Origin: Eutreptiella sp. 'Long Island Sound 2002'
Taxonomy: Eukaryota > Protista > Euglenida
DNA: 64,000 nt
Assembly (NCBI GenBank): GCA_964036045.1
Contig: OZ038378.1
Coordinates: 166,718,001-166,782,000 of the forward strand
Direction of reading: 5' to 3'
In this document: one piece after another, positions 3,301 to 57,075 of the stretch
How the letters are laid out: each line of letters opens with the position of its first letter
How positions within the stretch are numbered: position 1 is the first letter of the stretch
The notes under the pieces: generated by a model
Told to the model about the DNA's origin: nothing
The model's input: the letters and a program-made list of their open reading frames with translations, nothing else
The model's database searches: none
Program-made: the position numbers and the translations under genes

Positions 3301-6000
3301 CGGTTAGTCCATAAGGTTCTGTGCGTTCCAATGACACACGTTGCTTCAATGCGGCCTTGTACAATTTTGGTCACGGGTGAGCTACACACGGTGCATTAAG
3401 CGATGCAAAATTGGTATTGGGCAAAGAGCAATGACCCCCAGCCAAAGACTTACTGCATTCTACTACTTGCTCACCATCCATGGGCTGCAATGCATGGCAC
3501 TCCTTCAACACAACCCCGGACAACGGCAAATTGGGTCTCAAAAAGAAGCAAAGAAAGAAATGAGCGGGGAGGCTATCATTTAGGGGGGTGGCTAGGCACA
3601 ACTACAGTTTGCGGTAGGCACAACTACAGTTTGTGGAAAAAGAATAGTCACTGCTCACGCTGGGACTGTACGAGCCAGAACTGCTCTGAGCATCAGTTTC
3701 ACTGGCTCCCAAGTCCTGTGCATCTGATTGAGTGTCAGAAAGGATTGAAAGATTCAGTGTTGCAAGTGCTGCCCATGCTTCAGAGGAGTGTTGTGGCGGC
3801 GGCGGTTTGTCCAGGATTGCTAGGCGGTACCCCAGATGGCGCGGATGAATGGATGTCCGCCCTTCCAGACGATATGGGGCTTGCCCGTGTAGCATTACAC
3901 CATGGAGGACAACATGCGATCTAACCGTCAGCAGCCATGTGAACGCATGAGGCATGGCCAGGCAACCAATGAGCAAACATAACCTAGGTCAGCCGTGGAG
4001 CCAAAGGCACTGTGCCATGCGACCCTCAGCGAAGCAATGGCGGGACTCAATGCCCTTAAGCCCAAGTCCAATGCTCCTGAATATGCACACACACACACAC
4101 ACACACACACTCTCTCTCTCTCTCCGCTCCCTACCCGTTAAGGAAATGTGATCCCCCCCCCCCCATAGCCGGAATAGACAATCACACCCCTCCCTTCCCC
4201 TTAAAACAAGCTAAGTATGCGGCGCTTCATTCCCTCCCCTTGGAATACCCCCGTCCATAAGAGTTGGGCCTCATCCCCATCAGGGATGGGAGAGTTGGGG
4301 GCGGTGCGCCGCTGCGCAGCACATTTTCCAAGGGCACTATCAGTACTTCGTAGCTGTCGTCTCGGTTGGCAACATTGTGCTGATTCGCAGATCATTGGGT
4401 AGGGTAATTGTAACGGAGCTTGCGGTAATGGGAACTTCCTAGGACTCCTCATGTACAGAGGGCTGTCCCGACGGCGTGGCAAAGGGGTCCATTGCAGAGG
4501 CCAAGAGATCATCCAAACACATGGGCTGCAGATCATCATCTGTGGCATTCCCCGAGGTGGCCGCTGGCAACCACATGGGGTCCACTAGTGAGGGGGAGAG
4601 GTGACTGCGGGCGCCCAGCACGACATGTCAAACTCACCCTTGGGTGTCGCACGTGTTGGTTGCGTGTGCGGCTGACTAGGACCACTGAACACCACAGGTA
4701 GGGTGGCCAGCCGGCTCGCACCTAGCACCGCCTACAATAGGCGGGGGAGCGGCGGGAGTATTGGTGGTGATCGCATCCTAGGCAGGGAAACAACGCCCAT
4801 CCTTGTACTCAGCAGCTCCACGGCCAAGACCCATCGCCGTGGCGCCTTGTGGTATCTGCCTCTATCTTATTAGCAGAGTGATTGCAGGGGGAACCGCGTT
4901 GTCGCCTGCGGGCCCTGGACGAAGCAGTTGCGCCTACGGCATAGCCACTCATACTGCATGTGTGTACACACGCGCTGCCATCTCAAGCGTCAAAAACCCC
5001 AGTCGCATAAGGTATTGTATGCCCCCTACCGTCATGGGTGCCCTAGGTGGCGTTTGTATTCGTGTGCTTGAGAGGACTTTGGATGCACCAGTGGTGCCAT
5101 CCTCATCACCTGACGCATCACGAGAGCTTGAGGAACTCTCTGATGAACCTGTGTCAGGTTCAACTTCAGACTGGTGAAAAATTCCATCCTGGAAATGATT
5201 CCAAGGGCCAAATGTGTTTTGGAGCGTGGTGCATGTCCCGTGTGTCTCCCTTTGGGTATACGTGGATTTCTTGACCCGTGTTCTGGTTTGGCGCGTCGCA
5301 CCATTGGTCTTGGGGTGTGATGTCTCGCGGGAGTGGTGCGAGCGTGACGCGCGATTGGCGTTGGTGCCCATGAAGACTGCGAAGAGAAAGCTTCCAGCAT
5401 TGAAATGACCACCTTAGGTGGAATCCGGCGTGGTGGCCGCGCTACCGTGACAGCAGTGGCAGAAGGGTGGGGAGGGGGGCATGCTTGTCTATTTTGGCTG
5501 GGGGCGCCATTCTGGCAGGCCATGAGCAATGCATACTAAGCTTGCTTATACCCCCGTGACACAGGCATATGGTCATAGCTACAACTCACATTCTGGCAGC
5601 ACGGGGGGGGGGCATGGTTTAGCATGGTTTCACATTTTGAGCTGTTGGAGTTTTCTCGGGTCTAGATCCCCCACACAACTATCTGCCACCAGAGGCCCTG
5701 TGTGTGTGGTGGGCCATTTGTTGCATTGTGATGTCAAGCAAAGACTGAACGTGCGCCATATGTGCCCTAGACACGCATGTTAAAGGTGATATTGTTGTTA
5801 TTCGGGAAAACTTTAACAACATCAACACACAGTTGACATTTTTATCGTGAGTTTTTGTAGCTTTTGTGGCCACCACGAGTTTTCATTATGCCCACGTTGG
5901 CAGGAGTTTGGCCCATGATAGCTCATTTTGCAAATTTGCCAGCCACGTTAAAAAGGCTAACCTTATAAAGTTTTAAAATGTAATTTTCAATTGATAGTAA

Positions 6001-8502: not shown

Positions 8503-10224
8503 TCATAGATTGAGAGTCAGAGTATGCAAGGCTGCATCTTTCAGCCCAGCAAGTGCGTGTGCACCACTGTCGCCGACTTCGTTGAACTTCAGATCTATCA
8601 GCAGGTTGCACAGTGTGGTTGCATCCTTCAAGCCAGCAAGCGCTTGTGCACCACTGTTTCCAATGTTGTTGCCATACAGATTCAGAGTCAGAGTGCGCAA
8701 TTTACTATCCTTCATTCCTGCAAGGGCATGGGCACCACTATCACCAATCTTGTTGAATTGTAGGCTCAGATGAAGAGTATGCAGTGCGACTGCATTCTTG
8801 AACCCAGCGAGTGCTTGGGCACCACTGTCTCCCATGTTATTCCGGTACAATGTCAGAGTGAGTGTGTGCAGCGCAGCTGCATGCTTCAACTCCGCAAGTG
8901 CCTGAACACCCCTATGCCCTACTTCGATGTGCTGCAGGTCCAGAGTCAGAGTATGTAGTGCAGCTGCGTGTTTCAGCCCCGCGAGTGCTTCAGCACCACA
9001 GTCCCCCAGGTTGTTGCCGCACAGATTCAGAGTCAAACCCTGCAGTCCAGCGGCATCCTTCAGCCCAGCAAGCGCTTGGGCACCAATGGCTCCCACTTTG
9101 TTGTTGCACAGATTCAGAGTCAGATTACGCAGTGCAGCTGCATCCTTCAATGCAGCCAGCGCTTGCGCACCAGTATCTCCAATATTGTTGCCACACAGAT
9201 TCACAGTCAGAGTGTGCAGCTTGGCTGCATCCTTCAACTCCGCAAGGGCCTGAGCCCCGCTGTCTCCAATGTTGTTAGATTTCAGGATCAGACTTAGAGT
9301 ATGAAGTGCAGTTGCATTCTTGAACCCAGCAAGTGCCTGGGCGCCACTGTCCCCCACATTATTCAGGTCTAGTATCAGAGTCAGACTGCGGAGCGCGGCG
9401 TCCTTCATTGCAGCCAGTGCTTTCGCACCACTGTCCCCTATTGCGTTGCACTGCACATCCAAAATGAGAGTGTGTAGTGCAGCTGCGTGCCTAAACATTG
9501 CAAGTGCTTTGGCACCCCTGTCCCCCACGTTGTTGCCACACAGATTCAACGTCAGAGTATGCAGTTTAGCTGCATCCTTCAACCCAGCAAGTGCATGGGC
9601 ACCACTGGCGCCTATTTTGTTGCCACACAATATCAGAGTTAAAGTGTGCAGTGCAGCCGCATTCTTCAATCCAGCAAGTGCCTGCGCACCAATGTCTCCC
9701 ACATTGTTAGGGGCCGATGCATTGAAAGACAGAGTGTGTAGCGCAGCCGCGTTATTGAACGTGGACACATTCAAAGACAGGGTGTGCAATGCAGCTGCAT
9801 CCTTCAACGCTGCAAGTGCCTGCACACCACTATCTCCCACGTTGTTGTTGGACAGATCCAGGGATAACGTGTGCAGTGCAGCGACATCTTTTAATCCAGC
9901 AAGCGCTTGGGCACCACAGTCTCCGATACCGTTACTGTGCAGATTCAGAGTCAAAGTGTGCAGCGCAGCTGCGTCCTTTAACCTGGCAAGCGCCTGGGCA
10001 CCAGAGGCTCCCACTGTCATCAGTTTCAAAGACATGGTGTGCAATGCCTGCATGCACAAATTCCGCATCACTTTGAAGACATCGGGTCCCCTGACAACAC
10101 CGTACCGTACATGTCGCTGCTGCAAGATATTCCACATCCGAAGACACACATGACTGCACACCGCGTTCTGTGCAAAGTCAGAGATACAAATCAAGACATC
10201 CTGAGGCAACTCAAATAGCTTCAT
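8503..10224 (-). CDS. Intronless leucine-rich-repeat protein (RNI-like 28-aa repeats) with F-box-like N-terminus
   Basis: ORF 8503..10257 with ATG at 10224 (MKLFELPQDVLICISDFAQNAVCSHVCLRMWNIL, F-box-like). Followed by roughly 17-18 repeats of consensus LHTLTLNLxxNNIGDSGAQALAxLKDAAA. Confidence 0.9.
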   Translation of the reverse strand: MKLFELPQDVLICISDFAQNAVCSHVCLRMWNILQQRHVRYGVVRGPDVFKVMRNLCMQALHTMSLKLMTVGASGAQALARLKDAAALHTLTLNLHSNGIGDCGAQALAGLKDVAALHTLSLDLSNNNVGDSGVQALAALKDAAALHTLSLNVSTFNNAAALHTLSFNASAPNNVGDIGAQALAGLKNAAALHTLTLILCGNKIGASGAHALAGLKDAAKLHTLTLNLCGNNVGDRGAKALAMFRHAAALHTLILDVQCNAIGDSGAKALAAMKDAALRSLTLILDLNNVGDSGAQALAGFKNATALHTLSLILKSNNIGDSGAQALAELKDAAKLHTLTVNLCGNNIGDTGAQALAALKDAAALRNLTLNLCNNKVGAIGAQALAGLKDAAGLQGLTLNLCGNNLGDCGAEALAGLKHAAALHTLTLDLQHIEVGHRGVQALAELKHAAALHTLTLTLYRNNMGDSGAQALAGFKNAVALHTLHLSLQFNKIGDSGAHALAGMKDSKLRTLTLNLYGNNIGNSGAQALAGLKDATTLCNLLIDLKFNEVGDSGAHALAGLKDAALHTLTLNL

Positions 10225-11339
10225 ATCTGCAGGAGCACAGGCAGTCTGTAGAGACAACGCCCAGGCAAACGATTGGCAAAGATGTGCTCATGTGGGCTGC
10301 CAAGTTGCACGGCACCCATACATCCTCCCTGAAAGCAGAATTGCATGGAGCAATGGAAATTCCGCGATGCAATTGCCCTCCCCTTGCCCCCCGGACATTC
10401 CTCATACCCTGCCCCCCCCCCCCCTTGCAATCCCCTCCTTTAGTGCGCGACGGTCTCCCGGCCGGGGGGGGGGGGCGGTCGCTAAGTGACTGTCTCCCCT
10501 GGGGGGGGGGGGATTGCAAGGGTATTCCAAGGCAAACTAAACAGCAAATGTTGGGCATCATTTTGCATGTGTCTGCTCTTGCTCATGTCCAACTCTGATG
10601 CTCGCGTGTTGCAACAATTTTGTGAGGTTTGACTGTTCAATGATACCATCCCTCCTCCACAAGTAGTACAAGAATAATGGTACAATAACCCTGCCGGGCA
10701 GTGGGTGGCCATGATATCAGCTTTTCAAATAACCCGCATGATCTCAACCGCAACCCCATGCCTCTCTTTTCGAGAGCCTGTTCAGTTTTCTTCTCAGCTG
10801 TCCTTTCACTTGGCCCTACACAATCCTGAAAGACCTTGTCCACGTCAAAATGCTTCCCCGCCGAAAAGCAGCACTTTGTGTAGTAGTCTAGGCCCTGGGG
10901 CTCCGTGTCCAGTTCCCCTGCTGGCATCCTTGTGCTGGCCTTCCCTGGACACTATGCACCACGCAACCAAAGGCAATTCCACACACTCTGATTGTTCAGC
11001 CGCTGTAGCGCCTTCATCACATCTGCCGCTTCCTATGGGGTCCGAAACCGCTGAATTCGCATTTCAAAGCGCATGATTTGCTTGACAGCCCCTCCATTGC
11101 ATGGGACCTTTTGAGATGATACACCTGGTCCACCGTTGAACATGAATTCTGACAGATCAAACCCAGGTTCATGAGCTCAGTCATGCAACTTCTTATCGGT
11201 CATGATGGCGGCGATCCTCAATCCCTGCCCTCCTCTTCTGCCCCCCGCCCACCCAATGCAGCGGTCCAACCGGTTGTCTGCCTCAACCTGCCTCCCAACG
11301 CTTAAAGTGACGATGTAGAGGGACTGTATTACCAGTTCG

Positions 11340-21692: not shown

Positions 21693-22065
21693 CTGTGAAG
21701 GTCCAGAACAAATTGATAATCCAAGGGGGAGTATCTGCACCGCGTGCTCTACTTCTCACAAAATGCCCCCCAAGGAGAGGGGGCGCTTGGGTACAAGACC
21801 TCTGTAAACCTCCCTCCATCTTGCCCAATCCAGCGCCTCCCAAGGTGAAAATACATAAGATGGCCCCTTGGGAGCAACCACCACTCTAGTTTGGGGTCTC
21901 CCTGCCGGATTGTCGGTTTTTCCTACCCCTGTCCTGATCCTGGAGAGAAATTGTTGCTCCTCCGGCCTGACCGCCGGTTGGTCTACAGCTGCTTGGTCGG
22001 GCCAGACGATGAGATCTCTGTGCAGGGTTTCCACTGATTCGGAATAAAAAAAATCTTTTTGATTC

Positions 22066-22125
22066 GGAAATATTCGGAAATATTCGGAAATATTCGGAAA
22101 TATTCGGAAATATTCGGAAATATTC
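22066..22125. repeat. Six tandem copies of the decamer GGAAATATTC
   Basis: Read directly from the sequence. Confidence 0.95.
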
Positions 22126-22591
22126 AGATTGTTAAAAAACACACTGTTGCTCTTTGTAAATGCCCGTGGATGTCCTCTGGATGTTTGCTGTTCATACCAC
22201 AAGTCCCATACTCCCAATTTCTGCACCCTGAATTTGCCACAGTTTGAATGAGCATGAAACGCGGGAATTAATCACAGAAACGTACAACAACCAGTGCCTG
22301 GTAATGTTTTACTTCTTCACAACCCTCTGCTTGTGTCATCTGGAAATTGAGCAGCCCATTTGGCTGCAGTCATATGTTTGCCACGCTTTCTTGCTTGCAA
22401 TGGTTGTTTACCCGATGGTGCTAGTTGTTGCTTGCTCTGATGGAAATTCATCAGGTGTAGGCACAGGCATGGATGTGTTGACAGAGCTGGAAAATCGGGG
22501 GGAAGGAGTGTGCACCATACCCAGAGTACATCCCCCACAACACAGGAGACCCTCCCCGTATCCCGCCAAAACCCGAATGCTCACCCTTCTC

Positions 22592-22684
22592 ATATTCGGA
22601 AATATTCGGATATATTCGGAATATTCAGAATTAGCAGGTCCAGCTCTGTTTCGGAAATAGTCGGAAATATTCGGAAATATTCGT
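22592..22684. repeat. Second, degenerate cluster of (T)TCGGAAATAT decamers
   Basis: catattcggaaatattcggatatattcggaatattcag...ttcggaaatagtcggaaatattcggaaatattcg. Confidence 0.9.
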
Positions 22685-25600
22685 TTCTGAATGAGCGGGA
22701 AACCCTGCTCTGTGCCACGTGCCGCATCAGGTGCTCCCTGAAAGGTGCCGCTTGCGACAAATGTCAAGGTAAGTTACTTTTCCATCAAAACCCCAATCTG
22801 CAACAACCACGCTATGTCTAAAAGGCCCGTACCTTGAAGGAGCAGCACGGGGTGGAACACACTAACTGACCACTGGCATACCCCACGAACATGCTAACCA
22901 TGCAATGTGGGGAGGAAGTGTTTAGGCAGACAGGTGGATTCGTGTTTTTTTCCAAAAAAAATTTGCGGTCGTCCTCCAAAGCCCGGGGGTCAGTCTCGGT
23001 AGGATTTTGATGGTCCTGTCAATTGCCCTTTTTGGGGGGGAAGGTCCGGCTGGAGGGCTCTATCGACCCCCCCCCCCCCGAAACGAAGTCCCGGCTGCCC
23101 CAGCAGTGGCCAACCACGTCCAATTTATGATTCAACAGGATCCAGCTGCACCACACGTGAGTACTGGGGGTGAACCATCATTTGGTGACCAAGACCCAAA
23201 AATCAAGAAAAAAATAAAATGGGATTTTTGGAATCTGGCAGTGGCTCGTTGTCATCTTTCGTGAAGGAAGTCCTCGGCTTGGTGATACAGTGTGTGGGCT
23301 GCCCGCTTTGCAGGCATGTGACGGAGTCTGGGACCAGTGGCGTCAAGCAGGGACGCATTAGTAGGAGAGGACTGGGGGTGGGGGAAGATGGGATTCAAGG
23401 ATTTGTGGACCAAAAAACGTCCAAAAAAGGTTGTCTTTTATAAAGTTTGATTTTTCCCTGAGGAACTTTTTGTAGGACCCAGGGGAGGGAGGTGCGGGGG
23501 GGGGGGGGGGCTCCTTTTCAAAAATTTTCCGTTCTAGTGTGTTCATGGTAAGGACGGAGTTTTGAGGGTGAGTGTGGAATGGCGGTGCTACAACTCGCAT
23601 TTGTAGTGTTGTGCAGCGGGCGGGGGGGAGGGGGGGGAGAGCCTGCAGTGTCTTGCACAACCAGTTTTCCTAAACCCCCCCCCCACTTTTTGTTATGTTA
23701 ACGAATGGTGGGGCAGTTGGTGGAGAGGTTGAACTGTTGACAAAAAGTGGGGGCGTTAACGAATTTCATCGCACTGCAGAATTTGTCCCTTTGTCTTTGT
23801 CTTGATGTTGAGCAGAATGTACGTATGTATGTTGAGAAGCGTCACAAGGCTGAGGATGACCCTCAGCCTGACCCTATGGAGCCTTTGGTAAAGCAGCAAC
23901 ACACTTCCAAGCAACTTTCTTTGATGTCCTTTTTCAAACCAAACATCCCAAACTAATGTGGTCTTATGTGTTTCTCCAAAAATACTTGCCCATTTGTGTT
24001 GCTGCCATATTTGATGGAGGATTTAGTGAGTCAAAACTGTCACTGTTAACCAATTGTGGGGAACATGGTCTGCAAAGTCAACTGTTAACAAATCCCCGGG
24101 CCGTTACCAAAATTGGGTGTTAACAAAAAGTGGGAGGAGGGGGGGTTAGAGGCTCTGGGCCTCCAGGTGCCTGTGTGGAGGGGATTGGAGAGTCGGTTTG
24201 CGAACCATGGCAACTGGTCACCGATGATGGCTCATGGTTTCTGACTTGGATTTCAGCAGCAGGCGCGAAGAACGCGGGGAGGGGGGCTGGCATGACGCCT
24301 GGTTGTGTTGCTGTCTGCAGCTGGCGGCGTCTAGTGGCCTCTCGCCACTTCCCCTTGCCCTTTCCTTGAACCATTTCCCTCCGGCGGCGGCGCCCATCAG
24401 CCTCTCCCGTCTTTGTGCACTCCCTCTCCCTGCCTGGCCTATACTTACACACCCTTCCTTCCCCTTGGGAGGTTGTGCCAATGGAGCTCCTGGACTGTCC
24501 CTGTTTCACTGCTCTGTGCCGGGTCCCCACGGAGGAGGGCAACTGCCCTCGCCATTGGCCACGTGCGTCCAAGTGGACACCCCAAACCAGGGGGAGGGGG
24601 GGGTAGGTGTTGCCATATAGGCTGGGTAATTATGCCGGTTGGTACTTCCGGATGTGGACAACGGTTCCACCTTTCGAGCGGAAGTTGTGTATGATGTCTG
24701 TCCTCAGACGGTGGGGAGACGGATTTCTGGCAGACGAGAGTGGGACTGGTTCCTTCTGCTCACAGGTGCCGCTTCTGCCCCTGTGGCGTCCACCCCACCG
24801 CCGGCGCCGGGCAGCCTGCACGTTCAGTCATTCCTAACTGTAAAGATTTGTAGTGTGCTCTCCACCACTGAAAAGAGGGGGGGGGGGGGGGGCATCAAGG
24901 CCGAGTAAGTGCGCAGGTTGATACCTCTGGGTGTACGCACTGGTTTGGGTTTTCAGGCGGAAGCCGTCCACATCGCTTGCCCACAGGCGGTGGGGGAAAA
25001 ATAGTTTCCGCAGGTCAAAATGCGACAGGGTGAGAGAGGGGGGGATGGGGGGGACCTTGTGGATCGGCGACGGTGTGGGCATGGCGGCAGCGGCTCAGCC
25101 CGGCAGACACACAAAGTGGGCCGCGGTCCGGCCGGCCTTCAGACCGTGCTTCGGCAAGCCGAATCGACCGGCGGATACCGCCGCCCCACCCCACCCCATG
25201 GCTAGCACCCATGGCCTTGTGTGACATTCACGTTGCTGGTTGTGGTGAGCACCTCCCAGCCTGGGGTCTTCCTGATGAGCGCATAAGGCCGTCAGGGGAG
25301 GACGCAATGGCAGAAATTGCATTCTGGATTCCCACCCAGGAAGGTGGATGCCCGGGGCAGTACAGATGCCTGCTGGTCATAGCAGAAGGTTCAAAGGCGA
25401 GAGGCCAATAGGCGCCGCCACAGGCTAACAGAGCCAACCCCCAAGGCCTCGTGCCAACCCCCCCACCCCCATCCCCGCCCTCCCACCCCGTGTTTCCACC
25501 ATGTCGGTACCCCCGCCATGGCGGTACCCCCGGCGCACGTGCCCGGGTGCAACCGCTTTGAGGGTGCCTTGGGGCTCCCCCGCATTACCTCTTCGCATCT

Positions 25601-31159: not shown

Positions 31160-33159
31160 CTGCAGCGATGGGGGTTTGGACTGAGGGCCGGCAGGGCTGC
31201 AGGCCATGAGAGCAACGCAAAGCAGCTGCACACACACTTGGCACAAAGCAAATTTTTGTACGTACAGAAATTGCACACGACTGACCCCTGATTCATAACG
31301 CCGCGCACCAGTCGCTTGGACGCACATCAGTGGCTCAATTGCTTCTCTTGCCTTGTTTCCTTTGTTGTGTGGCAGAGGATCGGCAGAACTCGCACCCGCA
31401 CTTGTATGGCTTGGAGCCTTCTTTCTCGGGGCCTACCACCCCTACGGCCCCACCAGCGTGTCAGGGAGGGCGGTGACTGGTCAACGATCGCTCCCTTGCC
31501 GCCAAGGCAGTACAGGGGCTACCGCTGGTCCCCGACAAACGGGATCCCCAGGCCCTGTTTCTCCGGCAGGGAGTGAAAATTTCCGGGCCCTATTAGCCCG
31601 GATTGAGGGAGAACCGCCACATGGCGCGATAAGCTGTTCCAAGTGGTTGGGGTGCACCTCAAGTCTGTGTCCAGGGGGGAGAGCCACCGCATGCCGAACT
31701 GAACAGCGACCACGGGTCGGGGTGCACCTCAACGATGTGTCTGGGAGGGCCCCCACGTGGATAGTGCACATATTCTCGCGAGCAATCCCTTGTGTGTGTG
31801 TTTTTCGTTCAACTGTCAATAAGTGTGGGGCAAAGCAGTCAAGCAAAAGTGGGGGGGGGGGGGGGATGCACAGAATGTGCGACTAGATGGCATGGGGCTG
31901 CAGCATCATCACAGAAATGAAGCTGTCTCTGAAGAGATTGTGTCATACACCCAGTACTCACTGCCTGCGAACCGCGGCTAGAGCACAGCCCAAAGAAGAG
32001 ATCCGAAGCACAGTTTGGAGGGCATACTTGGAGCTCCAAATCATCATGCCGGTGCGGATATTGACCACTTTCGAGAAATATTTGACATCCAATGTACTGC
32101 TCTGGCAAATAATAGTGTCTGGCTTTGTGGGGTGTGAAGCAAACTTGATGTGGTCCTTCAATGCCTGAACGCAAATCAACCGCATGGAATGGATCAGGGG
32201 CCACACAGGGAAACAATTGCTAACAGAAGGGAGTGGTCACTTGCTCCCATGTGTCTCATTCTTGGTACGCAGGTTGCCCAGTACAAATCCATCTTCATGC
32301 CAGGCTCTGAGTGCCGGTTGCTGGTCCTGCAACTTCTTGCCTCCGAATCCCCAACACACACACCGGCTCCACTGCCACTCCCTTGGGGCTTGCGGCAGGT
32401 CCTTTTCCTGGATCTCCTCGTTGCAGCCCCAAAAAAGCAGTGTCTGCCCCGGCTGCTCACGATTGCAGCTGACTGCTCTCGTGGCGCCCGCTCGCTGGCA
32501 TGTTTAACCTTTGGGGGAAACACGCCTTGGACAGCTTCAACTTCATCTTGGGACCATCCCTTTCTGGTCTATTGTAGAGGGCGATGGGTCTCTGGGAGGC
32601 AGGGGGGGGGGGGCGGGGGCGAATGGATTGGGTCGACATGACATAGGACGGGTGGACGAAGAGAGCACCAAGGCAGCAAAATTTGCTTCTGACTGACGGG
32701 ATGATCCGGTGCAACCCTGAACACTTCCTTCATGAGTTACTCTCGAGGCCATTCCATCCGACGGAGGTGAGATGAGATCCCCGGCAGGTGACGCGGAAGG
32801 GGAATCCGCGCTGGTCCACCCCATTCGTCACGACTGACAGCTACCACCAGCAGCAATAGCAATTTTTCTTTCGGGCAGCTACAAGGCTCTTGCTTAGGCG
32901 GCCAAAACAGGTACACTTTTGTACCGCTGTTTTTTTAAAAAAATACCGAGAAATGATGTGGGTTATTTGAGTGATTTACCCTCTTTTTTTGGCCCTGATT
33001 TTTCATGAATGTTTTTTCAGTAAAAAAAGGTACTTTTTTCATGACGTTGCAACAATTTGGGCTCTGCTGTATTACTGCGTAGTAAGGTGTCTCCATAAAG
33101 AAGGATATTGCACTATACGTCCTGCTAAGTGTAGGTTAATACGCCTTTTTCTGCAACGC

Positions 33160-33344
33160 ATTGCGAGGCCTCGCAATACCAGGATTTGATTTTCGGTGCT
33201 TCTGCTAAAATTGAACGCATGCAGAATTCGCATATTGGTAATTACGCCAAATAACATGGTCCGTCGAATGCGAGGCCTCGCATTCCGGTTCGAAATATTC
33301 AAAAAAGGGTCACTTGCGCAAATCGAAATGCGAGGCCTCGCAAT
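33160..33344. promoter_or_regulatory. Left-end cluster of three AWTGCGAGGCCTCGCAWT palindromes (14-bp cores at 33162, 33269, 33329)
   Basis: Perfect cores read directly. The copy at 33266-33285 extends to a 20-bp perfect palindrome. Function is inferred. Confidence 0.8.
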
Positions 33345-33780
33345 AATGTAGCATGAAACAATAAAATGGACAGATCCACCAACTACACAGCATGTACATT
33401 CCCTTTGATGCGGCGCTACTGTATGGCCGGCCATACAGGTCCCGCCGGCATCTCTAGTTTTCATGCTGTGGTCACCGCTGACTTCACTGCCCAACAGCAA
33501 TGGTCGCGCGCCGCAACTGGGTACCGCAGTTAGGATTAACAAGAGAAATGTGGGACCAGTTGACCGTTACAAGTAACCGAGAATGTGCACGCGCGACGCA
33601 GTTGCGCGGAAAGATCGATATGCGCGTGTCGCGTGTGCAGCGCTGTGCTGGCAAGAAATTTTATTTACCTGTAGCATTATAAGTGCCTTTTTTCTTTAAT
33701 TGTTCAATTCAAATACACTTTTTCAATTTTTGAGATGATTGTTCATGCCACGGAACATTGCGCATTGAGCGCAGAGGGAG

Positions 33781-35718
33781 TTGGAACGGACTGTCAGGCG
33801 ATTGCGAGCTTTCTGTGCAACGGAACATGGATATACCACTCCTGAATCCCTATGGGCTGCTGTTGAAAACAACAAGAGCGGAGCTGTTTTCTTTTATGAT
33901 TTTGCGTGCTTGTTGCGACTGAACCGGAAGACACGGCACTCACTTCGGAGACTGAAAGGCAGACCAGAGAGTCGAGCGGCAAATCACTTCAAGGAGAAGT
34001 TCTTTAACCTATACAAAATCTTGCGCTTGCGGTGCACACCCCAACACCAGGACGAGGACGCCCCCGGTTTTGCCTCTATCGGGCGGCAGAACAGGCGCCG
34101 GCTGCGCAGGACAGGGCTGCTTCAGCTGCGAGAGGAAACTATGAAGCAACGGTCCGCGGGAAAGATGCTTGAAACATGGCGTTGGATGGAGAACCGGCAG
34201 GTTTGCGTCTGGATCGACAATTGCTACATTAAGCAGTATGGAACGCATCCAACGATCCAGGATCAGTCGCAAAATTGCACAGCGCTTTGCGTCGTTGAGA
34301 TTCCGTGCAGGTTGCCGTACTTCAGAGGACACCCAACCATAGATGTGCTCATCGGCAGCATCGGCAATGTGGCTGCAGCGCTGGTCAGAATGAAACGGAG
34401 CTTCCGTGGGATAGTAACAGATCTGGGCCTGCTTGCGGACAGACCAGCGCCAATACCGAGCATCAGGGCGCCGCTTGACATCGTGCGATATCCAGTACCG
34501 AATCCTGGTTGGACACCGCTGTTGCTGACTACGCATCAGGTATCCTCGTACAAGGGCCTCGTTGAGGTGTTGGACTACATTGCATCCCTGTCGAACCACA
34601 CGCACCCGATTGTGCCCATCCTCGTTGATGAGAACATACACAAAAGATGCCTCAAGTTATTGTACTGCGACAGAACGCAGCGCTGGAACTGGCACGAAAA
34701 ACTCAAGAGAACTCCCATCTTGTACGGCTGTTGGCATCCCTATAAATACCTTGTGACAAACGTGTGGCGGCGCTTTCATTCTCTATTTGTGTACTTCCGC
34801 TTTGGCCGCTTAGGAGTGGGGAAAACAGTAGGGTCGTACCCGAAGATGAGAGTCATGGAGAGAACTATGGCTGGCATCCTGAAGTGTTCGCCGCATTTCT
34901 TGCGGCAGTTGCGGCGGAAGTCGAACAGGTTACAGGCTGTTGCCGATCACGGTGGGACGGCGATGGATCGACTGAAGAGTGTGGTATGTAAAGCTATGGT
35001 GAACCTTCTGCAAAACTGGTGTCCGCTTGTCCTCTACTGTGGGTTTATCGTGAGGCAATGCAATTGGTCCGGACAACACCCAGGATCCGCCATCGACGCC
35101 CATCATGTTCTCCGACTGGTGTTCGTGCTTTTGACAGAGCTTGGCAGGGCTACAGCTGACCCACTTGTGTATGTGAGGACCATCGGTGTCGCCTTAATGC
35201 ATTGGCAGGCGTTCAACAGCGCCCTGCCCGGATTGTGCTATGGTGAAGAGTTTGGCGAAGTTATGCTCAGTCGACTGGGGTCCATGAAAGACGGACACAC
35301 CTGGGTCGTCACACCGAGCGACGTAGAAGATTTGTTCGTCCAAATATGTCCTGCCAGAATTAACAGACGCCTCCTGGTCAGCGGTTTGTCGTCCGACATT
35401 GAAACAGAGATCCGACAGCGCTTGCACTCGTATGTTACTGACGACCGCCTGAGAATTCGGTACTATCCCTGGCAATCGGGTAGCTCGACTATGGAGAGGC
35501 ACTGGGAGGCTGATCCGGATTTTCCGTCCGACCCTTACGGCGAGCCGGACGTGGACACATACAGGACTTTGTTGACCGATGTTTTGCGTACATTTCTGCG
35601 GCAACCCCAAAACTTCTCACCTGCTGTGCTACGGTTGATGGACAACATGGTTCCTCTGCGGTCTGATGCGCAGAGAACGAACATTTTGGACACAATCTGG
35701 GCCTTTACCGATGCATAG
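33781..35718 (+). CDS. Putative DDE (RNase H-fold) transposase with helical insertion, DUF6589/KDZ-like; true start probably in an upstream exon
   Basis: 645-codon uninterrupted frame with candidate catalytic motifs in order: VWIDN (D146), LVDEN (D283), GCWHPYK (H319) and YGEEFGE (E489-E493). Counted from the ORF-track start. An in-frame stop lies at 33766-33768 and a phase-0 acceptor gcgcag ends at 33774. Confidence 0.6.
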   Translation: MERTVRRLRAFCATEHGYTTPESLWAAVENNKSGAVFFYDFACLLRLNRKTRHSLRRLKGRPESRAANHFKEKFFNLYKILRLRCTPQHQDEDAPGFASIGRQNRRRLRRTGLLQLREETMKQRSAGKMLETWRWMENRQVCVWIDNCYIKQYGTHPTIQDQSQNCTALCVVEIPCRLPYFRGHPTIDVLIGSIGNVAAALVRMKRSFRGIVTDLGLLADRPAPIPSIRAPLDIVRYPVPNPGWTPLLLTTHQVSSYKGLVEVLDYIASLSNHTHPIVPILVDENIHKRCLKLLYCDRTQRWNWHEKLKRTPILYGCWHPYKYLVTNVWRRFHSLFVYFRFGRLGVGKTVGSYPKMRVMERTMAGILKCSPHFLRQLRRKSNRLQAVADHGGTAMDRLKSVVCKAMVNLLQNWCPLVLYCGFIVRQCNWSGQHPGSAIDAHHVLRLVFVLLTELGRATADPLVYVRTIGVALMHWQAFNSALPGLCYGEEFGEVMLSRLGSMKDGHTWVVTPSDVEDLFVQICPARINRRLLVSGLSSDIETEIRQRLHSYVTDDRLRIRYYPWQSGSSTMERHWEADPDFPSDPYGEPDVDTYRTLLTDVLRTFLRQPQNFSPAVLRLMDNMVPLRSDAQRTNILDTIWAFTDA

Positions 35719-35797
35719 AATCGGTTTTAGGTTGATTCCCAGCTGTGTTATGTTATTGCGCGCACAACGGTGCTTTTGCTTCCTGCTTCGTGACTAG

Positions 35798-35932
35798 AAT
35801 GCGAGCCCTCGCAATCGCCTCCTGCAAAAGTACGTTTTTGAGTAGATGTTCTTGCCTGAATGCGAGGCCTCGCAATACAAAGTAGGTAATTATAAACAAA
35901 TACCTGTGTTTTCGATTTCAAGCCCTCGCAAT
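35798..35932. promoter_or_regulatory. Intergenic palindrome cluster: one-mismatch core at 35800, perfect core at 35861, degenerate half-site at 35917-35930
   Basis: aatgcgagccctcgcaat; aatgcgaggcctcgcaat; ttcaagccctcgcaat. Confidence 0.8.
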
Positions 35933-35992
35933 CAAACCATAAATACATGCCGAACGACACAGTTTTTTCCCTTTTTACAGGCCTATTTCATC

Positions 35993-38575
35993 ATGGCAGA
36001 GAGCGTGACGCCAACAAAAGCGGGCAGAGCATCACCAGACACCTTGCAAGTACCGTCCACGCAGGACACGGTGCCAGAGGAGTTCCTGAGGTTCTACAAG
36101 AAGCCTTTGCAGGTGGAGGTCGACGTCACTACCCTTGGGATCGACAAGCAGAAGAAGTACGGTCAGATCCGGAAGTATCGACAGAAGCAAGTGGACGAGG
36201 TTAAGAGAAGTCTCATGGCAAACCCTCCTGAGGAGCCCGTGACCGTGACTGCATGGCAATCACCAGGTACGTAACCGGGCCGCAGCGGCGATGTTTCATG
36301 TGCATGCTCTCAAGACCCTCTTTCCGTCCTCGGTTGATGATTGGATCGTCATTGTAAAGCAGCACTGCGTCTGTGCGCTCAAAGAGCTCCGAAACGAACG
36401 TCTTGAGAAAGGCCTCGACCCACCGCAGTGGATGCAAATTGTTAAGGTCAACCTGCTGAAGACGGAGACGAGTTGGGCTACTCGGGTAGCAATCGCAAGT
36501 CGCAAGCAGGCCATCGATCTCGACATCTCTGCCGTGCCACCGTCGGAAGCAGCTGACAACTTTCTTATGCATTTGCGGGATTCGCCGGCTGGGCCTGACG
36601 AGTCCGCCAGGGATCACATTCACCGAACCATTCCAAAGGCCGCGAGCGGAAGTGCATGGATCCCTCCACAGGTTTCGGATGATGAACTCCAAGTATGTTG
36701 CTGTTTGGAATGCGAGGCCTCGCAATCTGCAATCTAGCAACGTACCCTCCGCCTGTGCAGTCTTATGCCGTTAAGGCCTTTGGACCCTTCTTCACGTGGG
36801 TGTACCACGCGGAGGACGCAGCTGTGCAGTCCGTGATCAATTTCAAGAACATGGACACACCACTGACAATGAACCAGTTGAAGTTTCTGCAGAGTTTGTA
36901 CGAGCCAGCCCTCCTACAACAGGTCGCCGCCGATATGTGGAGACCAAAGGTGAACATCAAGGAAATCCAGGACCGGGCCTCTACTTACCAGAAGCAGCAG
37001 TGGATCAAGTGGCATTGGGGAGCCGCTCCGGACAGCGTCATCCATCCCTCTCGAAGTATGTTCCCCTGACAGGCAAGTAGGCAAACACGCAAACATGAAG
37101 CCAAATCAGTCAATTAAAACTTTCCACACCTGTGCAGAGGCCAGTCCGGCAGAGAGGGTACCGCTGCATGACTGGGATGTCAATTGGTTTCGGATCCCTT
37201 TGGGGGCCTGGCAGTGGAAATTTGAGGCTCCGTCGCCAAAATGGGAAACGCTGAGCAAGGAGCGGTTCTGGACGGCAATGGGACACACTTTTCCAAAGCG
37301 TGGGGCATCAATGGACCTTGGCCGCCCCCGACTGGCCACGCCCTTGACGGAGGTCAAGTCTACGGAGTCTGGAAAAGTGGATGTGCTGAACATTGAGGCT
37401 AGTGGAAAGATGGTCAAAATGTTGTGCGCCCCCTACAAAGATCCACAAGATCCCCTTAAGTTTTTGGAGGCGCTGGAAACGGACATGATTCTTCTGAATG
37501 CGAATCTGGCGGATGGTGCTGATTCTGTGAGTCCGGTTGTGATGGCGAAGTTGATCGAAAACCCCGAAACGGTGCTGGTCATCTACGGCGAGGTGTCGCC
37601 CGCGTTTGACGCCCTGCAAACAGTTCTGGAGTCACCTGGGATTGCGGAGAACGATTACTGGTATGAGAAAGTGCAAGTGTGTCACTGGCTACCGGGTGCG
37701 GGCAAGACGGGAAAAGGCGGAATTCAAGTGAATGCACTGGTTCTGGTGGCCGGTGTAAAGATCAAGAAAAAGGTATGTACAACGCTTTCGGATTGCGAGG
37801 CCTCGCATTCCCTTTAACATCTCGCTACTCCTCTCCGCAGATCCCACCATACATCGGCTTGGATCGCCGCGAACGTGATGAACCAGGGTTCATGCCCCTT
37901 GTCCTCTATACGTGGCTGGCGACGCTGATGCGGAACAGAGACCGCTCGGACAACGTCATGATCTTCGATCGCGATGTGCACATGGCAGCGAAAGTGGCAG
38001 CTTTGGATGATCTTCCACAAGTTTGTTCTCTGCAGTTGACGAAATCAAAGCGATCGGACTGGGCACGGAGCTACCATCACGAGGTGACGCAGCGTGTGCA
38101 GGCAGGAGTAGACCAGACGAGGTTGGCACAGTGCGAGCTCTGGATCCAGTTCGGCATGCCAATGTGGGTCGAGGACGAGAACGTGGGGTATGCCCATCTG
38201 GAAGTGTCGACTGCAGAGGAAGCAAGTCAGAAGGCCCATGCAGAAGTCGGAGACGAGGACTTGGAGGATCCGGAGGACGACGACGATGACGCGGTGCTGC
38301 TGGAACATGATCGGCGATCTCCTCGGAAGTCAACGCAGGTTCGGGCGTTCCAGGCTGGCGATGCACATGAAGATGAGCCGGAGGCGAGCCAACCGCCGAA
38401 GCCGAAAAAGCCGAAGACCAAGGCGGCAGCAGAGCCGAAGCACACGACCCTGACGCAGCCCCAAGGGGTGAAGAGGACGCTGAGCCTTCCGGATCCGGGA
38501 ACAGCAGTGGGCTCCACGGCGAGGAGCAAGATGTTGGCAGCGGGATTGAAGAAGAAGAAGAAGCCCTCCACGTAA
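35993..38575 (+). CDS. Five-exon ~765-aa protein: ParB/Srx-like N-terminal domain, degenerate beta-class N6/N4 DNA methyltransferase-like domain, and acidic/basic tail
   Basis: Exons 35993-36266, 36334-36692, 36761-37055, 37138-37772 and 37841-38575 total 2298 nt (766 codons). Introns 2-4 are GTATGT...CAG of 68, 82 and 68 nt, and each joins consecutive ORF-track frames in phase. Intron 1 is GTACGT...cctcGG (67 nt, non-canonical acceptor). A polypyrimidine acceptor ending at 35980 lies just upstream of the ATG. Confidence 0.75.
36709..36726. promoter_or_regulatory. Palindrome copy inside intron 2 (36693-36760) of the ParB-like gene
   Basis: aatgcgaggcctcgcaat. Confidence 0.85.
37792..37809. 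promoter_or_regulatory. Palindrome copy inside intron 4 (37773-37840) of the ParB-like gene
   Basis: attgcgaggcctcgcatt. Confidence 0.85.
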
Positions 38576-38623
38576 AGGCGTTGGTAGCGCTGCAGCCCTG
38601 TTCTACGAGATATGTCGTCCCGC

Positions 38624-38891
38624 ATTGCGAGGCCTCGCATTCCCAGATTAGGCAACTTGCCATTTCTGCTCTTTTTTTTAGAAGCATCATCTGGAGATGA
38701 TGATTATACTGACCCTAAGGCAGCAGTCAGTATTGCGAGGCCTCGCATTCTTAAAGCCTCACGTGTCGACGCACACAATGTATTTATAGTTTGTATTCTC
38801 TTTTTGCTTGTTTCTGTGTGATCCAAAGCTGTGTGTAATTGCAAGGGATTACCTTGATTCATGTCTCGTATTGCGAGGCCTCGCAATACGA
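38624..38891. promoter_or_regulatory. Right-end cluster of three palindromes (cores at 38626, 38734, 38872)
   Basis: The last copy extends to the 26-bp perfect palindrome tcgtattgcgaggcctcgcaatacga (38866-38891). Confidence 0.8.
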
Positions 38892-39960
38892 ATAGGAAAA
38901 TAGTATATTTTTACATCATTTCGGCAACCTCGGGCGTAAAACTTGGCTTTTTTAAGGGTGCAAAAAAAAAGGAAGGAGAGGACAACACCAAAAAGCAAGG
39001 TTTTATAGTCGAAAAACCCCCAAAATATGGTGCATTTTACAGAAAAGTGGGTAAAATGGCAAAAATTGTGAGGCCCTCGGACCCCCCCCCCAACAGCCCC
39101 CCCCCAGAGTCTTTGACAGATAGCTGAGTGGTGGGTCGCAGCGGGACCGGGTCTAGCCGCCCTTCCGGTGTTGTACTACACGGCAAGCAACCAGCCTTTA
39201 TGGACGCGCCCCCCTTTCTAGGCTAGGCCGATTGCTGTAGGGCTCCCAACTTTCACAGGAGCAATGCAAGTTCGAAGGCTGGAAGCCCCAAGTGTTGATG
39301 GAGAACCACAATTGCCCCATGCCCCGTGCTGATGTCCTCCAGACCGGCGACATAATCCCATACTCCAAGAGCTGGGCTTTTTTGGAGGAAAATCATGCAT
39401 TTTTGTGGGTAATTGGGCCAAAAAATTGAGTAGTCAAATTTTGTGGTTGAAAAAAGTAGGCAAATCGGGCAAATTACCTGTACCAAATTTGCAGACATCC
39501 CGGTACAAAGGGTACCTATTTCGGCCGCCTAAGTCTTGAGTACGGGCACATCCTGACGAGCCAGCGGACCCCCAATGCCCTTGTTTCGCCCCTTTTCACA
39601 TCCACCGCCATTCTTAATTCTGCACTGATTGGCTCTGTGCAATGCAGCTCTCGGGAGGGCACCATGTTGCACTTGAACTCTACTTGAGGGAGAGGGGAGC
39701 GGCATATGAGGGAAATCAGCCAATTTGGACACTCGTGTCTGATCTGCTACTTTCGGCATCCGTATCCAACCGGGAGCTTGCTTTTGGGAATCATCGAAAA
39801 AGATCGTCACCGCCTGGCATCGCGCATTCGGAGAGGGGGGGGGCGGGGGTGGCATTACGGGCGCTCTTCTGGGCTGGCCAAGACTCTGTGGACTAAGGCA
39901 GCCCGTCCAGCTGGGCCACCACTTGGGCAAACATGTGGACCATTGGCGGCGGACTTATAC

Positions 39961-50780: not shown

Positions 50781-51480
50781 CTATGAACAAACCATGCTCA
50801 AGTGGCAAGTGCCACACTTAGATATATCACCAAGACGGTGGCCACACAATTGGCAACAAACACCATCATCATTTTCCTCCTCCTCAATGGTTGCCTCCTC
50901 CCGTGCCCATAGAGACTCAGGCACATGAGGCCAAGGTCCATAGGGTTGATACCTAGTCTGCCTGCGAATACAAAACTGAGTAAGGTGGAGCAAAATACGC
51001 ACATGGCCATGCAACTCCGTTGCAGAGCGTGTCCAAACAGTGCGGACAATCCTCCATTGCCACAACCGTGCAAAGAGGTGCTCCACCTTTGCACGATAGA
51101 AGCCATGCACATCGTTATACTCTTGTTGGTCTTCACTCAAAGTTTTCCGACCAATATAAGGCGCAGCGGTGTTCAAGAAGCCCTTATAGGCGCCGTCATG
51201 TGCACCTATTTCAAATTCGAAAAACGGCCCATGTGTTCGCAAAGGACCACGTTGATCCCAAATCATAACATCCGCGGAGGTTCCCAGCATAAGGTCACAT
51301 ATACATACTATATTCCCAAGATTGTCCACAGCCACGGTTATCTTATAAACATGGCCTGCGTACTTGGGATTGAAAAGGACATCCGAGCCAGATTTTTTTT
51401 GGGGGGGGCTACAAGAGTGTGCACAGGCGTGCGCAACGGTCGACCCTTAGTCGAATGGTGCATTTTGGCCGTGCAAGGGG
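50781..51480 (-). pseudogene. PIF/Harbinger (IS5-like, DDE_Tnp_4-type) transposase remnant
   Basis: FNPKYAGHVYKITVAVDNLGNIV...HDGAYKG...PYIGRKTLSEDQQEYNDVHGFYRAKVEHLFARLWQWRI is the typical D-G-Y / YN..H...R..VE pattern. Frameshifted upstream of ~51390. Confidence 0.75.
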
Positions 51481-55535: not shown

Positions 55536-55751
55536 GTAAGAACCCAAATACACGCCCTGGAGCGAAGATGACAGGCAAGGCACGTGCACTGCGCATCTGG
55601 ACCGCTCGTCAGGACATACACAAAAGAATGAAGGAGACACACACACTTCGGGAGGGAAATCAGAACCACAACAAAAACACGTGCAGTGTGGGTGAAACCG
55701 GGCACGGCGATGGCACGACACTCCAGAAAAACCTCGTCAGGCCACAGACAC

Positions 55752-55938
55752 GGACACACACACACACACACACACACACGATTTACGGAACGAAACGGGC
55801 AGCAGTCAAGACGCGGGCAGCAGTCAAGAAGGCCTGTTTGCACTCATTCTCGTCAGGCACAATCAGAACAAAAGCAATGGCATTGTCTGGCCGCGCTAGG
55901 CGCCTTTCTGCAGTACAGGGTACATGAGAGTGAAAGTG

Positions 55939-55974
<36 letters not shown>

Positions 55975-56130
55975 TTACGGAACGAAACGGGCAGCAGTCA
56001 AGACGCGGGCAGCAGTCAAGAAGGCCTGTTTGCACTCATTCTCGTCAGGCACAATCAGAACAAAAGCAATGGCATTGTCTGGCCGCGCTAGGCGCCTTTC
56101 TGCAGTACAGGGTACATGAGAGTGAAAGTG

Positions 56131-56170
<40 letters not shown>

Positions 56171-56326
56171 TTACGGAACGAAACGGGCAGCAGTCAAGAC
56201 GCGGGCAGCAGTCAAGAAGGCCTGTTTGCACTCATTCTCGTCAGGCACAATCAGAACAAAAGCAATGGCATTGTCTGGCCGCGCTAGGCGCCTTTCTGCA
56301 GTACAGGGTACATGAGAGTGAAAGTG

Positions 56327-56364
<38 letters not shown>

Positions 56365-56537
56365 TTACGGAACGAAACGGGCAGCAGTCAAGACGCGGGC
56401 AGCAGTCAAGAAGGCCTGTTTGCACTCATTCTCGTCAGGCACAATCAGAACAAAAGCAATGGCATTGTCTGGCCGCGCTAGGCGCCTTTCTGCAGTACAG
56501 GGTACATGAGAGTGAAAGTGAACACACACACACACAC
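55752..56537. repeat. Tandem array of four ~192-196 bp units, each containing a variable (CA)n tract
   Basis: tttacggaacgaaacgggcagcagtcaagacgc starts at about 55782, 55974, 56170 and 56364. Confidence 0.95.
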
Positions 56538-57075
56538 AAACAACCACGACAGACGACACACGACACAAAGCGAGGCGCGCGACGCAAAACCACGTGACGA
56601 GCAGACCCGTCAGGCCAGGGTCACGCTGGCATAGTGGGGGCGGAGCGCCTCTCCAACTTGTCCCACTGAACCCGTGCCGGAGGAAACAAGAGGGGACGGT
56701 GAGAGAAGACAGACCGATTGGAGTGGTGAGGCGCCCCTCGGCACACATGCTTATGGTTGTCGTGAGGCACCCTCTGGATGCCCACGCAATCGCACACCGA
56801 CTCATGCAGACAAGGACGTCGACACAGAACCAAACAAACGTGTCCGCATATGCAGCCGTCAACATTGCGTCGGACACCTCGCGATGGGGGTTGCTGTCAG
56901 GCAACCGCCCGGCTGTGTCGTGATGAAGAGGCGCATCCCGACACAGCACAATACTGTCGTGTGCCAACTGATCGAGGTCGCACACACAACTGATCGAGCC
57001 ACGGCCAGACAAAACACATGAACGTGACCAGAAATGGAAGGACAGGGGGTCAGTAACGTAAGCCGCATGAGCAGC

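Follow-up and report, generated by a model that had tools for sequence, protein, structure and literature searches.

Few transposons are known or proposed to mark themselves, namely VANDAL, Spm, Mu and those with putative ParB-like accessory genes in algae. VANC21 binds motifs that lie in introns of VANDAL21, between its genes and in its terminal regions (PMC5735166). ParB-like accessory genes adjoin inverted-repeat arrays in red-algal Plavaka elements (PAG3, Bostrychia) (10.1101/2025.02.11.637652), a ParB-like accessory protein is also present in Sola1-1_Ec32 of Ectocarpus (PMC12477816), and these algal proteins have been proposed to bind and modify the inverted repeats of their own element (10.1101/2025.02.11.637652; PMC12477816). 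Spm TnpA and the AtMu1 transposase bind family-specific motifs and activate cognate copies, and the AtMu1 transposase does so alone (10.64898/2026.08.24.746577). The P-element transposase has its sites at distances of 9 and 21 bp from the terminal repeats (PMC7776569), and dimers of the piggyBat transposase bind palindromes as well as internal sites (PMC11707139).

The locus described here carries a palindrome, two copies of which sit in introns, and this palindrome is an element-wide motif that belongs to the transposon rather than to the introns. The element, located at 32893-39533 (+ strand) of the window (the whole 64-kb stretch of DNA that was analysed, to which all coordinates refer), is a DDE transposon of the cut-and-paste type, 6641 bp long, bounded by terminal inverted repeats and inserted at many sites; the copy present here is a decayed member of a multi-copy family. 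The repeats are imperfect and approximately 34 nt long (32893-32926, + strand, and 39500-39533, - strand), with inverted arms of 27 nt (32893-32919 and 39507-39533) that are 89% identical. The pentamer TCTTG flanks both ends and, on the strength of this single locus, is a candidate for a 5-bp target duplication. In four public runs the coverage of the element drops at both ends and contigs continue into many different flanks; in the deepest run (X2), 49 contigs carry unlike flanks before 32893 (agreement 0.35). Since the runs may include the source of the window itself, these data show many insertions, not many organisms. The copy in the window is dead or non-autonomous, because gene 1 carries a stop at codon 8 (33766-33768) and the acceptor of intron 1 of gene 2 is broken. 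Other copies skip an insertion of approximately 302 bp near the right end (39073-39375), the corresponding joints being present in all four runs, and this insertion is possibly a nested small element. In three of the four runs the bin 33323-33563, which includes a different, perfect 20-bp palindrome at 33419-33438, is covered about 10 times as deeply as the remaining element, and loose ends occur at 33363 and 33405; the stretch is therefore common to a much more abundant repeat.

The remainder of the window holds other repeats and genes. Two arrays of a 10-nt tandem unit, approximately 550 nt apart (22060-22130 and 22650-22690), are perhaps subterminal repeats of another element, and 55744-56560 comprises about four head-to-tail copies, 97-98% alike, of a unit near 194 nt. 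On the minus strand lie a 594-codon open frame with leucine-rich repeats (8506-10287; Pfam LRR_6, E 1e-44) and a fragment of a Harbinger-type DDE_Tnp_4 transposase (50784-51446; E 7e-12).

Gene 1 of the element (33745-35718, + strand) is intronless, contains no full copy of the palindrome and encodes a DUF6589-like DDE transposase, whose fold and acidic triad are recognised from a structure model and from alignment. The model (pLDDT 91.8) matched the P-element transposase best (Z 10.4, rmsd 5.9, 291 residues aligned), with Hermes at Z 9.3, and the top 12 rows of the fold search were all transposases. Among 13 sequences D150 and D287 were invariant and E493/E497 nearly so, and a GxWH motif was conserved. 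The protein has 792 relatives at E <= 0.001; none was found among viral contigs. Language-model features from the Atlas placed it at 0.95 to a DUF6589 cluster (202 of 256 features shared; DUF6589 in 29 of 30 matches), with a recognition value below the 2300 mark of the tool, and Pfam yielded no match at E <= 1, DUF6589 (PF20231) included. We take DUF6589 to be linked to the Academ superfamily.

Gene 2 (35993-38575, + strand) is an accessory gene of five coding exons (35993-36266, 36334-36692, 36761-37055, 37138-37772 and 37841-38575, all on the + strand). Removal of the four introns yields a single frame of 765 codons, and if any one of them is kept a stop follows within a few codons. Intron 1 (36267-36333, 67 nt) ends in GG in this copy; in most other copies the acceptor is AG, 36332 G>A being the majority letter in all four runs. 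Beside intron 2, 9 of the 10 exon positions that vary at >=8% among other copies are third codon positions (p = 0.0004), counted in the frame of each flanking exon, which differs between the two sides of the intron; neither the donor hexamer nor the final AG of intron 2 shows a variant among the difference rows listed. Frame, third-position and splice-end conservation thus support the introns well, and we infer that they are spliced. No RNA run was among those listed for the element. Of the ten runs that contain it, six (X1, X2, X5, X6, X7 and X8) behave as DNA, and of the joints listed for them (15 of 193 in one listing) none falls at an intron; one of three runs taken by guess to be RNA (X11) gave 0 contigs for the element, so that these runs have no bearing on expression.

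Exon 5 of gene 2 is matched by 107 proteins from many contigs. When compared to a profile of 12 ParB sequences, the N-terminus of the spliced product ranked first of 502 (profile-profile P = 0.0011), the likeness covering residues 59-154 and spanning the intron-1 junction, and with a second profile of 9 sequences it took ranks 1 and 2 of 1003 (P = 0.028), both profiles being small and home-made. The nucleotide (CTP)-binding motif of ParB is GxxR. In gene 2 the corresponding position aligns to KQH, and the motif is not conserved; the likeness behind the term ParB-like used in the preliminary description is weak. The separate exons matched no Pfam or PHROG family, pieces of the gene had no match in a phage collection, and the C-terminal half had no PDB sequence match. 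For this half, Atlas values of 0.80-0.81 to helicase/AAA families lie below the lead threshold of the tool and may stem from a GAGKTG string. The structure model reached a pLDDT of 42.6, a quality at which fold searches were uninformative. A degenerate N4/N6 methyltransferase, suspected by eye in the C-terminal half, received no support from a 14-sequence profile, which placed it at rank 75 of 317 scored (P 0.17).

The palindrome has an 18-bp consensus, AWTGCGAG-NN-CTCGCAWT, and occurs ten times without mismatch and once with two mismatches, in every case inside the element; no further match with <=2 mismatches was found anywhere in the window. Three sites lie at the left end (33160-33344; sites 33160, 33267 and 33327), three between the genes (35798-35932), one each in introns 2 and 4, and three at the right end (38624-38887; sites 38624, 38732 and 38870). 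Two of the intergenic sites are full (35798 and 35859), and the third (35915) is degenerate, with one perfect half and 2 mismatches to the consensus. The sites nearest the tips are 267 and approximately 343 nt away from them and are unlike the terminal repeat. Flanking sequences of the ten sites are unrelated to one another, and the sites therefore owe their spread neither to tandem repetition nor to the insertion of a single unit. The A/T letters beside the core are complementary in 3 of the 10 sites and mismatched in 7, a pattern that fits half-sites read separately and not a selected stem. One perfect half-site also lies in the first codons of the transposase gene (33801-33808); it is not clearly conserved, because one other copy reads RQLRA there. 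Among viral contigs 15 matches to the motif were found, each of a single site, and these were attributed to chance.

The preliminary description had proposed a site at least every ~2.5 kb, and about every 0.9-1.1 kb across gene 2, and the distances agree: the largest gap is 2471 nt and spans the siteless transposase gene, and those across gene 2 are 794 (850 when the last perfect site is taken as the start), 1083 and 832 nt. The siteless transposase gene and its 2471-nt gap indicate that spacing is not strict. The intron layout it had reported was also recovered. Introns 2 (36693-36760, + strand) and 4 (37773-37840, + strand) are both 68 nt long, run from GT to AG, start with GTATGT and hold the perfect 14-bp palindrome TGCGAGGCCTCGCA at 36711 and 37794, that is 18 and 21 nt after the first intron base; intron 3 (37056-37137, + strand, 82 nt) and intron 1 (+ strand) have no site, and a 95-nt GT..AG stretch at 35886-35980, a possible 5'-UTR intron, holds the degenerate site at 35915. 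The sites are not central, as had been stated, but occupy nt 17-34 and 20-37 of the 68 (36709-36726 and 37792-37809), in the 5' half, between the donor and the 3' tract, which leaves 31-34 nt for the 3' signals.

The chance of finding the 14-mer in a given 68-nt intron is approximately 2.5e-7. Neither the donor nor the length sets introns 2 and 4 apart, however: intron 3 also starts with GTATGT and intron 1 with GTACGT, intron 1 measures 67 nt, and intron 2 is 67 nt long in a second subfamily, as deduced from read-through peptides. Two of ten sites in introns represents no enrichment over the share of introns in the non-coding DNA (p = 0.39). The pattern of sites is real and non-random, and the intronic position is a by-product of the element-wide system of sites.

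Other copies allowed the site to be compared with its surroundings. In run X2, 0 of 18 site positions of intron 2 vary at >=8%, versus 12 of 41 in the flanks (Fisher p = 0.007), where several variants reach 45-95%; these values come from 40 of the 61 difference rows and exclude contigs <80% alike. Two changes within the site in X2 occur at 3% each and are both CpG transitions, and two shallow runs add a few further site changes, in one or two contigs each. Loose ends revealed a second subfamily with different intron-2 flanks and the same site. Two subfamilies were likewise seen in read-through peptides, with a 67- and a 68-nt intron 2, different flanks and the same site, which was intact in 4 of 7 proteins. 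For intron 4 the site was intact in 11 of 24 informative proteins (107 examined), the rest having one to three residue changes; peptides of this kind over-represent copies whose read-through frames are open. Selection thus appears to act on the site, not on the intron.

One metagenome scan provided relatives: 70 pattern matches gave 5 confirmed loci (L001-L005) in four families, L004 and L005 showing 24 differences in 2964 nt. Four of the five loci, and hence three of the four families, carry their own repeated gapped palindrome, with transposases 22-31% identical. The motifs are TCCGCG-N6-CGCGGA in L001, GGTGTT-N4-AACACC in L002 and GTCCCGT-N2-ACGGGAC in L004/L005; both motif and spacer are wholly different between families, each motif being unrelated to the others and 16-20 bp long. 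A dimeric protein would suit such dyads, whose arms of 6-8 bp enclose a free centre. The observed counts were reached by 0 of 100 simulated sequences in each of the four loci, and although the motifs were found post hoc, the flanking copies alone suffice to define them. L003, a cut piece of 2070 bp that is mostly coding, had no repeated palindrome.

Besides their copies in the flanks, these relatives have palindromes in frame within the coding sequence of the transposase, whose gene lacks introns. L001 has one such copy, at residue 458, in a loop with a two-residue insertion; L002 has one, with one mismatch, at residue 212; and L004 has two, at residues 439 (expanded loop) and 790 (low-complexity tail). 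Codon shuffles matched these counts in 0, 10 and 0 of 1000 cases, respectively. The occurrence of palindromes in three relative families indicates that internal sites are a design of the clade, for which introns are one housing. No ParB-like or gene-2-like sequence was found in L001-L005, whose contigs are short and cut; the left sides are truncated, and an accessory gene may still lie there. On the right, the end of the L005 contig resembles, by eye, the terminal repeat of the window, approximately 990 nt past the transposase stop, which would leave no room there for a long second gene. We also noted four to five TAACCC telomere-like units in the right part of the L005 element (3440-3470 and 3605-3644) and, in L002, another motif that recurs next to the main palindromes (~320, 940, 3240 and 3300) and has a CGCGATCGCG-like core, as well as short open frames to the left and right of the transposase.

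The preliminary description had suggested that introns serve to place DNA-binding sites along the element without disturbing the protein. The placement of sites along the element is supported, since the site is kept where the intron flanks diverge and since relatives also carry their own palindromes within the element; the notion that the introns exist to hold sites is not, because two of the four coding introns are siteless, there is no enrichment, and intronless relatives use codons instead. We infer that a protein recognises the site in its DNA form, and that gene 2 encodes this reader. In such a scheme, the weakly ParB-like accessory protein encoded by the element would bind the palindrome as a dimer, on double-stranded DNA, and coat the element at roughly 1-kb steps, and the coating would keep the element unsilenced and competent to move, a form of self-marking or anti-silencing; introns would be the only free space for sites in a 2.6-kb gene, where intronless relatives write the site into codons. 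The anti-silencing purpose is suggested by the precedents, the presence of one CpG in each half-site and the CpG-poor surroundings (CpG observed/expected of 0.92 in the element versus 0.60 in the rest of the window), although the higher CpG content could merely reflect a young, coding element. That the palindrome is a site at the DNA level, whether bound by the gene 2 product or by the transposase, we regard as probable with considerable confidence; the complete proposal, with double-stranded sites bound by a ParB-like dimer of gene 2 that coats the element against silencing, is about an even call.

The absence of a gene 2 homologue from the short, cut relative loci, in which sites are nevertheless present, speaks against gene 2 as the reader and leads to the transposase, which might itself bind subterminal and internal sites, pairing the ends, limiting activity or activating cognate copies. 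This possibility, rather unlikely but to be taken seriously, would account for sites that accompany the transposase in three relative families, fits the short right side of L005 (a resemblance judged by eye) and has precedents in piggyBat (PMC11707139) and AtMu1 (10.64898/2026.08.24.746577). It is weakened by a motif that has no likeness to the terminal repeat and of which the outermost copies are >260 nt away from the tips, by the complete change of motif and spacer between families, and by the truncated left sides of the relative loci, where an accessory gene could lie. The change of motif from family to family, together with the absence of the motif from the other 57 kb of the window, also makes it decidedly improbable that a host transcription or chromatin factor, exploited by the element, binds the site, a reading that would draw on the putative status of the element-encoded binder.

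Two further readings, both raised in the preliminary description, concern the introns themselves. The palindrome could form an RNA hairpin that assists or regulates the splicing of introns 2 and 4, and intron 2 of this copy does form a long hairpin, in which the donor and the 3' portion pair (-21.8 kcal/mol; z -2.23; a stability reached by 6 of 200 shuffles). The hairpin is private to this copy, however, since frequent variants at 36700, 36703 and 36739 disrupt its pairing with no partner change among those listed, and intron 4 folds no better than its shuffles (z -0.48, 59 of 200); moreover 8 of the 10 sites lie outside coding introns, relatives also carry sites in coding sequence, and the A/T pair is mostly mismatched, so that a splicing role is very improbable. 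Alternatively, introns 2 and 4 could derive from one palindrome-bearing, introner-like mobile intron, as their equal length, common donor hexamer, similar site offset and borderline flank similarity (p = 0.07) might suggest. Introner families are defined by likeness that extends to both intron ends (PMC9860276). The likeness of introns 2 and 4 is limited to the site, and outside it two tests found no significant similarity between them (p = 0.07 and 0.21). The intron ends show neither terminal repeats nor a target duplication, the ten sites have unrelated flanks, and the motif does not recur in the rest of the window, all of which renders such an origin highly improbable.

With binding by the gene 2 product as the preferred reading, the system of sites may work like VANC/VANDAL or like the proposed ParB-like accessory systems. 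As in VANC/VANDAL of Arabidopsis, an accessory gene stands beside the transposase and short family-specific motifs occupy non-coding parts, including introns of the accessory gene itself (PMC5735166). In contrast to that system, the sites here are 16-20-bp dyads, single, dispersed and with unrelated flanks, and in relatives occur in coding sequence as well; tandem amplification of the VANC type is not seen among the ten sites, and the likeness drawn is one of layout, not of a Mutator-like transposase or a VANC-like gene 2. The algal accessory proteins resemble gene 2 in their ParB-like N-terminus, for which the ParB call is also weak (HHpred E 0.29), but their repeats form tandem arrays beside the gene and their C-terminus is a 2OG oxygenase or N4/N6 methyltransferase, whereas here the sites are spread through the element, the transposase is DUF6589-like and the methyltransferase profile lent no support to such a domain. 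Spm and AtMu1 motifs cluster at the termini, with intron or codon sites not described in the text consulted (10.64898/2026.08.24.746577); those of this element are internal as well as near the ends. P and piggyBat share with it internal or palindromic sites, to which dimers of their transposases bind, and the fold of gene 1 is closest to P and Hermes; their sites lie within ~130 bp of the ends, as opposed to across 5.7 kb here (PMC7776569, PMC11707139).

The layout of the element also calls to mind bacterial ParB-parS, a system of dispersed palindromes of approximately 16 bp and a ParB protein. Here, unlike in that system, the CTP-binding motif is not conserved, there is no ParA and no partition role is evident. 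We tentatively suggest, as a possibility, that this scarcely described clade of eukaryotic DDE transposons has a parS/ParB-like self-recognition, in which the 16-20-bp palindrome of each family would co-evolve with a dimeric reader encoded by the element, and internal sites would be required in addition to those at the ends, in minimal introns where these exist and otherwise in transposase codons. Single long palindromes that are dispersed through an element and overprinted on codons seem to be new: codon-overprinted sites were not described in the available text of the literature searched (PMC7776569, PMC11707139, PMC12477816, PMC5225508), Repbase reports and subscription papers being outside its scope.

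The clade offers at least four natural pairs of site and family, with long and unambiguous motifs, which makes the idea of ParB-like self-binding testable by gel shift. Orthogonal pairs of reader and 16-20-bp site could serve as tools, and codon-overprinted sites would clearly illustrate how a code at the DNA level constrains protein sequence.
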